Positions 28,335 to 31,973 of a stretch of 64,000 nucleotides of DNA are shown piece after piece. The notes beneath the pieces were generated by a model that worked only from the letters and a program-made list of their open reading frames with translations, searched no databases and was not told the origin of the DNA. The stretch spans positions 178,806-242,805 of the forward strand of contig NZ_JAQSDY010000012.1 in assembly GCF_029946145.1 (NCBI RefSeq), in the 5' to 3' direction. The translations under genes were made by a program, and so were the position numbers. The stretch's first letter is position 1. Each line of letters opens with the position of its first letter. Source of the DNA: Brevundimonas sp. Its GTDB lineage: Bacteria; Pseudomonadota; Alphaproteobacteria; Caulobacterales; Caulobacteraceae.

Positions 28335-30089
28335 TCAGGCGTCCTCTCGGGCGGATCGGGTTTCGGTTTCAGCGGGACGCTGCACCGGCGGCGGATCGGG
28401 AATGGTCACGGCGCCCTGGGCGGCGGAGGCCACCGAGGCGCGATATTTGGCGAAGACTCCGTGCGCCGGGCGGATCGATCGGGGGACGAAGTCCGCCCGG
28501 CGCTTCACCAGATCGGCGTCGACGTCGATCCGGCGGTTGCTGACGTCGATGGCGATGCGGTCACCGTCGCGAATGAGAGCGATCGGGCCGCCGACCGCCG
28601 CCTCGGGCGAGACGTGGCCGGCGACAAAGCCGTAGCTGGCCCCCGAGAAGCGGCCGTCGGTGATCAGGGCGACGTTGTCGACGCCGCGACCCTTCAGGGC
28701 GGCGGTGACCTGCAGCATCTCGCGCATCCCCGGACCGCCCTTGGGGCCTTCGTAGCGGATGACGATGACGTCGCCCTCGCCGACCGAGCCGTCCTGGACC
28801 GCGTGGAAGGCGTCTTCCTCGCTGTCGAAGACGCAGGCCGGGCCCTCGAACCGGTCGACCTTGTGGCCGGTCAGCTTGATGACCGCCCCGTCGGGGGCGA
28901 TGTCGCCATAGATGACGGCGTAGCTGCCGCGATCCATGACCGGGGCGGCGAAGTCGGCGACGACCTGCTGGCCCGGGGTCTCCTCGGCCTCGGCGGCCTC
29001 GGCGAACAGGCTGCGGCCGCTGACGGTGGGGGCGTTGACGATCTTGCCCGCCGCCGCCATTCGCTGGGCGACTAGCCGCGTGCCGCCGGCCGCGAACAGG
29101 TGCGAGGCCAGGAAGCGGCCGCCCGGCTTCAGGTCGCAGATGACCGGGGCGTCGACGCAGGCTTGGTGGCAGTCCTCGATGCCGAACTCCACGCCCGCCT
29201 CGGCGGCGATGGCGGTCAGGTGCATGACGGCGTTGGTCGAGCCGCCCGAGGCGGAGACGGCGACGGCGGCGTTTCTCAGGCTTGCCCGGGTGATGTATTT
29301 GCGGGCCGTGTCGCCGGCGAACACCCGCTCGACGATCAGCCGGCCGCAGCGCTCGCCCTCGGCGCCCTTGGCCGGATCGACGGCGGGCACGTCATTGGCG
29401 CCCATGGGCGACAGGCCCATGACCGTCAGGGCCATGGCCATGGTGTTGGCGGTGAACTGACCGCCGCAGGCTCCCGCGCCGGGGCAGACGGCGCTCTCGA
29501 CGGCCTGCAGCCCGGCGTCGTCCAGCGCGCCCGCGGCGTGGGCGCCGATGGCCTCGAAGATGTCCTGGACCGAGACTTCCCGCGCGCCGATGCGGCCGGG
29601 CAGGATGGTGCCGCCGTAATAGACCAGACCGGGGATATCCATCCGCGCCAGGGCCATGGCGGCGGCGGGAATGGTCTTGTCGCATCCGACGATGCAGATG
29701 ACGCCGTCCAGCTGGTGGCCCTCGACGGCCAGTTCGATGGAGTCGGCGACGACCTCGCGGCTGATCAGCGAGGCCTTCATCCCCGCCGTGCCCATGGAGA
29801 TGCCGTCGGTGACGACGATGGTGTTGAAGTCGACCGGCCAGCCGCCCGCCGCGATGATCCCGGCGCGAACATCCTTCGCCAGCCGGTCCAGGTGCATGTT
29901 GCACGGGGTGACCGACGACCAGGTGTTGACCACCGCGATCATCGGCTTGTCGAAGTCGGCGTCCTGCATGCCGGCGGCGCGCAGATAGCTGCGCGCGGCG
30001 GCCCGGCTGGGACCGGCCGTGACGGCGCGGCTGCGCGCATTCGGCGGGCGGCCGTCCGGTCCGGGGCGTGAGGTGAAATCTTGCGTCAT
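28335..30089 (-). CDS. ilvD: Dihydroxy-acid dehydratase
   Basis: [60 protein letters not shown]. Start ATG 30089. Confidence 0.97.
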
Positions 30090-30130
30090 GGCGGGCGTCG
30101 GTTCCGGGAGTGGTCCGGACCGCGCGCAAC

Positions 30131-30159
30131 AAAAAACCCGCTTCCTTTCGGGAGCGGGT
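30131..30159 (-). terminator. Intrinsic terminator of the ilv/leu attenuator
   Basis: Minus strand ACCCGCTCCC-GAAA-GGAAGCGGGT-TTTTT (one mismatch, GAAA loop, U-tract), about 40 nt before the ilvD ATG. Confidence 0.9.
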
Positions 30160-30189
30160 GGCTGCGGGCGATCCTGAAGGGGCTTGGGT

Positions 30190-30288
30190 TCAGGTTGCGT
30201 GCATCCACACCGCTCCGGGGAGCAGCACAAGCGATACAACGAGAATAAGGGTTCTAGGGGCGATCAGGACGTTCGACTCGCGCGCCAT
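30190..30288 (-). CDS. ilvL: Leu/Ile/Val-rich leader peptide [32 protein letters not shown]
   Basis: 32 codons with an [10 protein letters not shown] run. An in-frame GTG at 30342 with a GGAG SD is an alternative start. GGAGCGG-T-GTGG is complementary to CCAC-CCGCTCC at the terminator 5' arm. Confidence 0.85.
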
Positions 30289-30368
30289 CGCAGTCGCCGA
30301 AACGGCGATGGTGCGATCAGCGATGCGGGCGCTGTTGGCCACGTGAATCTCCAGTTCGATTGAAGACT

Positions 30369-30416
30369 ACCCACATTTTGCTGCGGTGCACAAGGTAGTT
30401 TCGCAACAATATTGCG
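30369..30416 (-). promoter_or_regulatory. Putative sigma70 promoter of the ilv leader with upstream CGCAA-N5-TTGCG palindrome
   Basis: TTGTGC (30393-30388), 18 nt spacer, TAGTCT starting at 30369; palindrome at 30402-30416. Confidence 0.4.
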
Positions 30417-30808
30417 CAACTTCGCAGAAACCTTGCTCCCGCCGCAAGAATCATCCCGAACGGGGCGCGGCAGTCTTTCCCGCGAAGGCGCCGCCATACG
30501 GAAATCGGGCCAGCGCCAATACGCCTGAGGACTCGGCAGCCGTCACGAACGTCCTGAGTCACAAATCGATGGGGATGTCGGAGAGGGTGCTGTTACCATC
30601 AAAGCCTTGCCACCCCAGCCGACCGAAGCTGAGGTGGGCGGGAGCTGCTCAGGTGCTTCCACTGCGCGCCCGCCGAACTCCCAATCAGGTTACAAGAATG
30701 GCGATCAAAGCCATTGGCGAAGGGATGGCCGCCTTGACGTTGCGGACAGTCATTGAGGCCGCGCCGTGCCACGGGCCGGATCACCCGTTGAGCGGGCCCG
30801 GCAGGCGC

Positions 30809-31462
30809 CTAATCCCGATCCGGCGCGCCGAGTGGAAAATATGAGCGATACTTCCGCCCTTCTTCCACCGCCCGCGCGAATGACGGTCGCGCCAGCAATC
30901 GCGTGCGATAGGCGCGAAGCTGAGGGTAGGCATCGCTGATCTGATTTACCCAGTCGCCGTAGAAGAGAGACGGCGCCGCAGCGCAATCGGCCAACGAGAA
31001 GTCGTCGCCGGCTGCCCACTCGCGCCCGTCCAGTCGCTTTTCCAGCCAGCCATAGGCCACGTCCAGCGCCCTCGCCGCATTCTCCGTTGCCTCTTGCAGC
31101 CGGTCAGGCGTCTTCCGTAGCGCTTCGCCTACCACCCCCGACGCGGCGTTCATCACATATTGATCGAAGAAGCGGTCGAGCAGTCGCACCTCCAGGGCCG
31201 TTGCAGGGTCGTCCGGGAGGAAACGCACTTTCCCCGGATGCTGCAGATCCAGATGCTCGATAATGATGCTGGTCTCGGCAATGGCGCGACCCTCATCGAC
31301 CAGAACGGGGAATTTCGCGATCGGCCAGAGTTTGGCCAGGTCGTCGCCCACCCCCGGCTCTTCCATATGTCGGTAGGCGAATGGAGTATCGTTTTCCCAC
31401 AGCGCCACGAGCACCTTCTGACAGTAGGAAGAGAAGGGGTGAGCATAAAGCGTCAGCGACAT
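30809..31462 (-). CDS. Glutathione S-transferase family protein
   Basis: HPFSSYCQKV, KFPVL (cis-Pro), AETSIIIEHL, FSLADCAAAP. Confidence 0.92.
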   Translation of the reverse strand: MSLTLYAHPFSSYCQKVLVALWENDTPFAYRHMEEPGVGDDLAKLWPIAKFPVLVDEGRAIAETSIIIEHLDLQHPGKVRFLPDDPATALEVRLLDRFFDQYVMNAASGVVGEALRKTPDRLQEATENAARALDVAYGWLEKRLDGREWAAGDDFSLADCAAAPSLFYGDWVNQISDAYPQLRAYRTRLLARPSFARAVEEGRKYRSYFPLGAPDRD

Positions 31463-31472
31463 CAGTGTTCTT

Positions 31473-31973
31473 TCATTTCATGAGTTTCGCGACGTGAGCG
31501 GCCAGTTTCGCCATGGTCTGCCCCCCATATTCGACAGCGCCGAAACCGATCGCCCAATCTCGTCGCGCTTTGGAGGGGTGCATCTGCCGGAGCGTCAGAA
31601 CGGTTTTGCCGTCCTCTTGCTCGTCGAAGGTGACGAGCATTCTGAACTTGTCGGGGTCGTTTTCCTGATCCGAACCGTGCTCGACTTCGATCAGCGCTGG
31701 CGCCACCATACGGAGGAACACCATACGGCTGCTGTAGCGGACGTCATCAGGAGCGACCATGTCGAACTGCCAGACCCCGCCCGGCCTAAGGTCGATTTCG
31801 CGGGTTTCGATCGACATGCCGTCAGGCCCGAACCACTCCTGGATTTGTTCGGGATCCGTCCAGGCGGAGTAGACGACGCTCCGAGGCGCGTCGATGACCC
31901 GAGCGAGGACGATTTCGCGATCGATGGGCCAATCCCGCCAGGGGGAATTGGGGGTTTTGAATGGGTCGACCAT
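31473..31973 (-). CDS. SRPBCC (AHA1/START-like) domain protein
   Basis: IVLARVIDAPRSVVYSAWTDP..IQEWFGP...IDLRPGGVW. Confidence 0.9.
   Translation of the reverse strand: MVDPFKTPNSPWRDWPIDREIVLARVIDAPRSVVYSAWTDPEQIQEWFGPDGMSIETREIDLRPGGVWQFDMVAPDDVRYSSRMVFLRMVAPALIEVEHGSDQENDPDKFRMLVTFDEQEDGKTVLTLRQMHPSKARRDWAIGFGAVEYGGQTMAKLAAHVAKLMK

Follow-up and report, generated by a model that had tools for sequence, protein, structure and literature searches.

The ilvGMEDA (ilvXGMEDA) operon of Escherichia coli and Salmonella is preceded by ilvL, whose product is rich in Ile, Leu, and Val (ILV) and permits multivalent control (Pfam family PF08046, IlvGEDA_leader; the region is covered by Rfam family RF02744). 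Attenuation is also established for the acetolactate synthase operon (ilvBN/ilvIH) of Caulobacter (Tarleton, Malakooti and Ely 1994, as cited in PMC4117421). According to the account in PMC4117421, the ilvBN leader of Caulobacter crescentus combines tandem Ile/Val codons with an intrinsic terminator ahead of branched-chain genes, and a leader peptide for alphaproteobacterial ilvB/ilvIH genes is credited to comparative genomics (Vitreschak et al. 2004, as cited in PMC1273637). In Corynebacterium glutamicum, the ilvBNC leader carries Ile/Leu/Val codons and is described by a three-hairpin model of alternative structures (PMC11857589, PMC10272879). Here we examine a leader in Brevundimonas sp. (Caulobacteraceae, the family that also includes C. 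crescentus), whose genome is 3.49 Mb in size with a G+C content of 68%. The leader lies on the minus strand of a 64,000-nucleotide (nt) stretch of contig NZ_JAQSDY010000012.1 (hereafter the window, to which all coordinates refer) and precedes a nine-gene ilv-leu operon whose first gene is ilvD. We assign a probability of about 0.9 to the interpretation that this leader is a ribosome-mediated attenuator sensing charged tRNA-Ile, tRNA-Leu, and tRNA-Val. All hallmarks of such an element that can be read from sequence are present and conserved: a ribosome-binding site and start codon, a run of rare control codons, an antiterminator that overlaps an intrinsic terminator, and a stop codon at which a ribosome would mask the antiterminator.

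A Leader Upstream of ilvD with the Layout of ilvL

The analogy with E. coli ilvL of ilvGMEDA, drawn already in the initial annotation of this locus, is borne out by the shared layout and by the full-length alignment of a covariance model discussed below. Both leaders encode an Ile/Leu/Val-rich peptide consistent with multivalent control. In both, the 5′ arm of the antiterminator falls within Gly-Ala codons soon after the ILV run (E. coli GUGCGGGG, in Cys-Gly-Ala codons; Brevundimonas GGAGCGG), and the stop codon resides inside an apical hairpin (AAGGCUUAG...AAGCCUU for ilvL). Each terminator has a GAAA loop, a single internal mismatch, and a run of U residues (E. coli CCCCCGCACC-GAAA-GGUCCGGGGG), and both operons include an acetohydroxyacid synthase (AHAS) II gene pair. 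The ILV run of ilvL ends with ATT ATT ATC.

The two systems also differ in several respects. The ilvL peptide has 32 amino acids, whereas the Brevundimonas peptide has 50, begins with GTG, and carries an N-terminal extension of about 24 codons that contains a hairpin. Unlike ilvGMEDA, the Brevundimonas operon begins with ilvD, includes leuABCD, and lacks ilvA. The likeness to the C. crescentus and C. glutamicum leaders is based on their published descriptions. The former attenuator governs only the acetolactate synthase operon, whereas the leader described here precedes an ilvD-led operon of nine genes; the latter belongs to an unrelated lineage and a different operon, ilvBNC. A literature search found no description of an ilvD-led nine-gene operon under the control of such a leader.

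Searches of Rfam with positions 29000 to 31500 at E ≤ 10 yielded noise and no relevant match, whether to the known Leu, Thr, His, Trp, and Phe leaders, to RF02744, or to riboswitch or T-box models. Similarly, neither the 50- nor the 32-amino-acid form of the leader peptide matched a Pfam or NCBIfam family at E ≤ 10, including PF08046. In positive-control searches, E. coli IlvL scored 61.5 bits against PF08046, and E. coli ilvL scored 157 bits against RF02744. Because the E. coli controls match and the Brevundimonas leader does not, the latter lies outside these two families as they are defined. These results support classification of the leader as an uncatalogued member of a textbook attenuator class, whose mechanism itself would hold no surprise for a specialist.

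The Leader Open Reading Frame and Its Control Codons

The leader open reading frame (ORF) extends from a GTG codon at 30342 to a TGA stop at 30192-30190 on the minus strand and comprises 50 codons plus the stop. A Shine-Dalgarno (SD) sequence, GGAG (30352-30349), is located 6 nt before the GTG. The initial annotation was correct in placing a leader ORF here, but it counted 32 amino acids from an in-frame ATG at 30288 and left the choice between that codon and GTG 30342 to future experiments. Relatives of the leader gathered by blastn and tblastn provided 40 distinct Brevundimonas examples, nearly all of which have a GTG or TTG start after GGAG, AGGA, or AAGG and encode peptides of 46 to 54 amino acids. 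Their start codons align with GTG 30342, and the reading frame and length are conserved across the genus. ATG 30288 was rejected as the start, as it is missing in the nearest relatives (L002 and L003), is not preceded by an SD sequence, and lies within the 3′ strand of a hairpin called P1 (see below). Because the GTG is conserved among the 40 leaders and the ATG is not, we take the leader to be 50 codons long, with translation predicted to begin at GTG 30342 and ATG 30288 the less likely alternative.

Codons 32 to 41 (30249-30220) read CTT ATT CTC GTT GTA TCG CTT GTG CTG CTC, such that nine of the 10 residues are Ile, Leu, or Val. This run had been noted before as consisting of varied, partly AT-rich codons, and codon usage computed from 1,398 long ORFs of the genome adds that they are rare. 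Leu is encoded genome-wide by CTG (73.5%), CTC (17%), and CTT (4.3%), Ile by ATC (92%) and ATT (6.1%), and Val by GTC (57%), GTG (36%), GTT (5.2%), and GTA (1.4%). Among the ILV codons of the run, the first six therefore each account for at most 17% of their family, and the last three codons (GTG CTG CTC) are of common or moderate usage.

The choice of rare codons is a general property of these leaders. CTT-ATT and GTA are nearly invariant, and a GTA-CTT-ATT or CTT-ATT motif is found from Lysobacter to Brevundimonas. Among 58 unique leaders, ATT represents 73% of the Ile codons, CTT and CTC represent 32% and 41% of the Leu codons, and GTA represents 35% of the Val codons, compared to 10% (ATT), 3% (CTT), 9% (CTC), and 1% (GTA) in the ilvD genes that these leaders adjoin. 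By standard decoding rules, the rare codons of the leader are expected to be read by tRNA-Leu(GAG), tRNA-Ile(GAU), and tRNA-Val(UAC) or tRNA-Val(GAC), each of which is encoded by one gene in this genome. Modelling of attenuators, in the account given in PMC1183508, has sensing operate through rarely used or wobble-read codons. The near-universal GTA-CTT-ATT trio would constitute a clean natural case in which codons are chosen to suit sensing through tRNAs that are minor or read by wobble, and it offers a simple annotation signature for such leaders in GC-rich genomes.

A scan of the genome on both strands, which required a hairpin of at most -10 kcal/mol and at least five T residues after it, returned 159 terminator-like candidates. 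Only one of these, the ilv leader, has an ILV-rich ORF (at least eight ILV among 10 residues) ending 10 to 60 nt upstream. Because it is unique among the 159 hairpins, the arrangement is more than would be expected by chance.

Mutually Exclusive Antiterminator and Terminator Helices

Both RNA structures claimed in the initial annotation, an antiterminator and a competing GAAA-loop terminator, are present at this locus, although the first proves to be part of a longer helix. The antiterminator 5′ arm, GGAGCGGTGTGG (GGAGCGG-T-GTGG; 30216-30205), is formed by codons 43 to 46 (Gly-Ala-Val-Trp) and is complementary to the 3′ arm, CCACCCGCTCC (CCAC-CCGCTCC; 30161-30151). RNAfold analysis of the whole leader extends this pairing to a composite rod of about 22 base pairs with a predicted free energy of -32.9 kcal/mol when considered alone. 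The apical helix of the rod, CCUGAA/UUCAGG (30194-30173), encloses the stop codon. The terminator (30158-30131) consists of CCCGCTCCC/GAAA/GGAAGCGGG (30158-30137) followed by six U residues (30136-30131) located 41 nt before ilvD, and has a predicted free energy of -13.3 kcal/mol with one C·A mismatch. Since the two structures both require the 8 nt from 30158 to 30151, they are mutually exclusive.

Three additional features were identified within the leader. A protector (1:2) hairpin, GCUGCUC-CCCG-GAGCGGU (30226-30209), can form by pairing of 30226-30220 with 30215-30209. Hairpin P1 (30314-30282; -18.8 kcal/mol) occupies the N-terminal coding part of the leader. Most of the 40 leaders have a hairpin here with a loop of 4 nt, and its lower stem is clade specific. 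Folding of the individual sequences gives moderate support for P1 (mean z of -1.4, with 19 of the 40 below -1.5), and a column-wise count on the alignment found 43% of cells paired, a value that did not exceed that of slid controls. It is possible that P1 serves as an RNA polymerase pause or synchronising hairpin. Finally, the element TCAGGATCGC (30177-30168) is nearly invariant in the genus, and its counterpart in related attenuators from other members of the Caulobacteraceae is GGATCGC(AAGATC). As a 10-mer this sequence is not rare, with 44 copies in the genome. It recurs in the thr leader of the same genome (see below), and no other copy is positioned beside a terminator.

These features bear on the possibility that the terminated leader RNA, predicted to be about 230 nt long, also acts in trans as a small RNA, which would make the element bifunctional. 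The leader is long, P1 and the single-stranded-looking conserved element exceed what attenuation needs, and rnTrpL of Sinorhizobium, as outlined in the literature on that RNA, provides a precedent. However, the conserved pieces fit within the antiterminator rod, and we consider this second function unlikely.

Conservation and Covariation of the Leader

Within the genus, conservation of the intergenic region is confined to the segment that opens with the control run, where the matches start, and closes with the U-tract. Neither helix varies in its core in this set. The same layout is found before ilvD in Maricaulis, Hyphococcus, Terricaulis, Parvularculaceae, Robiginitomaculum, Citromicrobium, Novosphingopyxis, Lysobacter, and others, and among 110 loci examined, an ILV-rich ORF ends 15 to 45 nt ahead of a strong terminator in 61.

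A diverse alignment of 39 sequences was used to assess covariation. For the terminator, 88% of the alignment cells are paired and five of the nine pairs exhibit compensatory changes, a result that none of 500 shuffles equaled. For the antiterminator core, 90% of the cells are paired. Both helices are retained with compensatory changes in Caulobacterales, Sphingomonadales, and Lysobacterales. Moreover, one column of the terminator 5′ arm (U/G/A) covaries both with the base it pairs with in the antiterminator arm (A/C/U) and with the one it pairs with in the terminator 3′ arm, as expected of two alternative pairings. Ungapped complementarity of at least 7 of 8 nt between the last leader codons and the terminator 5′ arm is present at 35 of 47 unique loci, compared to 9% of shuffles and none of the 47 upstream control segments. 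The ilvL-type design known from enterobacteria, with a GAAA-loop terminator and a stop codon within a hairpin, reaches Alphaproteobacteria and Lysobacterales, where existing catalogues miss it.

The leader and the operon are present or absent together across Brevundimonas. Nine complete genomes of 2.4 to 3.4 Mb that lack the leader (G008, G023, G059, G145, G179, G194, G207, G218, and G253) also lack an ilvD orthologue and leuC. The sole LeuC-like match in these nine genomes, at about 32% identity, lies within an ORF of 900 to 1,260 amino acids that we take to be aconitase. These genomes probably lack the entire ilv-leu operon and, judging from gene content, are likely to belong to natural branched-chain amino acid auxotrophs. 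Two other genomes that were missed by blastn contain both the operon and a divergent leader.

These patterns are difficult to reconcile with the alternative that the ORF encodes a genuine small hydrophobic protein with a single membrane helix, with the hairpin as its terminator and ilvD expressed by read-through or from its own promoter. Gene finders do call the ORF and its relatives as hypothetical proteins of 50 or 61 amino acids. The 50-amino-acid product of this genome is present in a public protein collection, where its relatives of 50 or 61 amino acids are all unnamed or labeled as hypothetical protein. Furthermore, the ILV run could form a membrane helix, and some leader peptides are known to act in trans as well, as exemplified in the available accounts of peTrpL of Sinorhizobium. 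However, the N-terminal two-thirds of the peptide varies freely between clades, yet the Gly-Ala codons that form the antiterminator arm are conserved even at synonymous positions, which points to selection on the RNA and not on the peptide. The extreme rare-codon bias is unlike that of expressed genes, the overlapping antiterminator is conserved through compensatory changes, and the leader is strictly coupled to the ilv-leu operon. We therefore regard a dedicated small protein as very improbable.

Ribosome Position and a Proposed Mechanism

We modelled the effect of a translating ribosome by masking 29 nt for each position of the A site, with 18 nt on the upstream side and 10 nt on the downstream side. 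In these in silico folds, the minimum-energy structure contains the antiterminator when the A site is at codons 24 to 40, and contains the terminator when the A site is anywhere from codon 41 to the stop codon. Because the masked folds give the antiterminator there, the rare codons 32 to 38 sit where a stalled ribosome would leave the 30216-30205 arm free. The common codons are found at or just before the position from which a stalled ribosome would start to cover the arm (codons 39 to 41).

On this basis, we propose the following sequence of events. Transcription would begin near 30358, and a ribosome that initiates at GTG 30342 would trail the polymerase. If Ile, Leu, and Val are plentiful, the ribosome would pass codons 32 to 41 and reach the stop codon at 30192-30190, where it would cover the 3′ half of the antiterminator 5′ arm as well as the apical helix. 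The 30158-30150 segment could then pair with 30145-30137, and we infer that the polymerase would terminate in the U6 tract ahead of ilvD. In contrast, when any of the three amino acids is scarce, the ribosome would stall on one of the rare CTT, ATT, CTC, GTT, or GTA codons and leave 30216-30205 free; at codons 36 to 40 it would also cover the protector strand. The rod of -33 kcal/mol would then capture the 5′ arm of the terminator, and the polymerase would read into ilvD-ilvC-ilvGM-leuA-ilvE-leuCDB.

Several observations weigh against this interpretation. First, the naked leader RNA folds into the antiterminator, so that a translating ribosome would be required for termination. Second, classical models invoke a protector hairpin, and the one predicted here is weak (-10.6 kcal/mol); equivalents on the antiterminator 5′ arm occur in 35 of the 39 diverse leaders, although composition-matched shuffles fold as well or better (mean z of -0.8, which does not set the equivalents apart). 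Third, covariation analysis within the genus has no power because the helices are invariant, and the covariation signal comes from distant relatives alone. Fourth, a simple terminator scan misses the leader terminator owing to its internal mismatch, and a scan for consensus sigma-70 promoters found no promoter at the leader. Last, the covariance model built from the diverse ilv leader alignment, termed R1, scores 31.2 bits in a full-length alignment with the attenuator of E. coli ilvL, but terminator-only matches elsewhere reach 25 to 31 bits, and thus part of the ilvL score may derive from the terminator and the score alone is no proof of common descent.

Promoter Region and an Upstream Palindrome

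By conservation alone, we predict a -35 hexamer, TTGTGC, at 30393-30388. TTGTG is maintained throughout the genus at a fixed distance of 51 to 53 nt before the leader start. A predicted -10 region, TGGGTAGTC (30373-30365), occupies a conserved position at which relatives carry TGGCTCTAT, TGGTTTCTT, or TGGCTATAT; this region has the form TGG-N-T-rich and follows the -35 element by 16 to 17 nt. From this arrangement we infer a transcription start near 30358, which would yield the terminated RNA of about 230 nt mentioned above.

A palindrome, GCAA-TATTG-TTGC (30415-30403), is located 9 nt upstream of the -35 hexamer and outside the attenuator proper. Of 40 distinct Brevundimonas promoters, 24 carry a perfect palindrome of the form G[CG]AA-N5-TT[GC]C, with matched half-sites and an AT-rich center, 8 to 9 nt ahead of TTGTG; 16 of these palindromes are GCAA/TTGC and eight are GGAA/TTCC. 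A similar palindrome precedes the promoter of the thr leader in the same genome (19987-20001). This sequence is a candidate site for a dimeric regulator, and it resembles the Lrp consensus. No regulator gene adjoins the promoter palindrome. A plus-strand ORF at 30386-30844 was considered as a divergent Lrp-like regulator, but was rejected because it has no Pfam match and is probably spurious. The approximately 390 nt (30420-30809) between the leader promoter and a glutathione S-transferase gene (30809-31462, minus strand) contain no convincing gene.

The Nine-Gene ilv-leu Operon

The nine-gene ilv-leu operon anticipated downstream of the leader is confirmed by NCBIfam matches, ORFs, and a search for additional copies. 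It spans 30089 to 20083 on the minus strand and comprises ilvD (30089-28335, with an ATG start at 30089), ilvC (28331-27318), ilvG (27314-25608), ilvM (25606-25343), leuA (25346-24120), ilvE (24136-23171), leuC (23178-21766), leuD (21773-21183), and leuB (21183-20083). The genes abut one another, separated by at most 3 nt and overlapping by up to 17 nt, and the operon contains no predicted terminator-like hairpin. IlvG is of the AHAS II type and passes the NCBIfam cut-off for acetolactate synthase 2, and IlvM is an AHAS small subunit of 87 amino acids.

The leuA, leuC, leuD, leuB, and ilvM genes are the sole copies in the 3.49-Mb genome. A secondary-metabolite cluster was ruled out, since the genome has no second leuA, leuC, leuD, or leuB, and for this reason the nine genes represent a housekeeping branched-chain amino acid operon rather than an accessory cluster. 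The leader thus provides an assigned control element, with its start set at GTG 30342, for the only branched-chain amino acid operon of this Brevundimonas. Outside the operon, the genome carries an ilvC-like gene (45% identity; contig C26, 100176-101138) and a gene for an AHAS-like thiamine-diphosphate enzyme (31% identity; contig C27, 274883-276490).

LeuA is short (408 amino acids) and matches only positions 3 to 384 of the 516-position profile for 2-isopropylmalate synthase. Because the match ends at position 384, the protein lacks the C-terminal regulatory domain. Given the truncated LeuA and the IlvM-type AHAS subunit, feedback control of the pathway may rest mainly on transcription.

Related Leaders and a Possible Attenuator Cassette

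A second attenuator, a thr leader, follows leuB on the same strand (19837-19722, within the region 19990-19722) and was matched by R1 with 28.6 bits. It shares with the ilv leader a GTG start, a long leader, C-terminal control codons, and an antiterminator arm in the last codons, which in this case is GGCGGGG. The encoded peptide has 44 amino acids and ends with ...MTTMTITTITTPTAGTG. An identical TCAGGATCGC element is present 8 nt before the terminator arm. In contrast to the ilv leader, its control codons specify Thr and Ile, and it governs AK-HSD/thrB genes. No terminator-like hairpin is predicted between the end of leuB (20083) and the thr leader, and therefore transcripts that read through the ilv-leu operon would encounter the thr attenuator. 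An R1 search of this genome revealed no attenuator-like element beyond the ilv and thr leaders.

Among 201 Caulobacteraceae genomes, R1 matches were obtained in 93, representing 18 of 27 genera. Many of the full-length matches (loci L119 to L141, from other genera) retain a 3′ scaffold consisting of GGA[AG]CGGGGCGAACGCGCGCG, a stop codon, GGATCGCAAGATC, and then CCCCGCTCC...GCGGGG-T5 as the terminator. Some carry runs of Met, Thr, and Ile codons, such as those encoding MMTIIITP or MMMAMMIKI. This exchange of control codons alone, with the scaffold kept, argues against the alternative that the hairpins are switched by a ligand, a tRNA, or a protein (as in a riboswitch, a T-box-like element, or a site for an RNA-binding protein) and not by the ribosome. 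A switch of that kind could account for the conservation of TCAGGATCGC in the ilv and thr leaders, where no pairing role shared by the two is evident, and the conserved upstream palindrome does suggest an additional regulator. However, no Rfam family matches the leader, and without translation there would be no explanation for the conserved SD sequence, start codon, and reading frame, for an ILV run written in rare codons, or for a stop codon eight codons past the arm. We judge such a mechanism to be highly unlikely, and retain the ribosome as the predicted sensor.

The R1 matches in other genera look like a paralogous attenuator cassette. We tentatively raise the less probable idea that the ilv leader is one copy of a reusable Caulobacteraceae cassette, wherein GGATCGC and the palindrome mark an extra, factor-dependent layer that replaces allosteric control. 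The scaffold of this cassette would comprise the antiterminator arm, a stop codon within an apical hairpin, GGATCGC, and the CCCCGCTCC...GCGGGG terminator, and in this genome it recurs ahead of the thr genes. If this were true, the extra layer would be a pause signal or a regulator common to several amino acid operons, and together with attenuation it would replace allostery, in keeping with a LeuA that lacks its regulatory domain and an AHAS of the IlvGM type. The genes that follow R1 matches are diverse. Several matches precede proteins of 95 to 140 amino acids without a Pfam family, those with ILV runs precede ilvE-leuC, and one with a Tyr run (VYVYAYY) precedes a biopterin-dependent aromatic amino acid hydroxylase.

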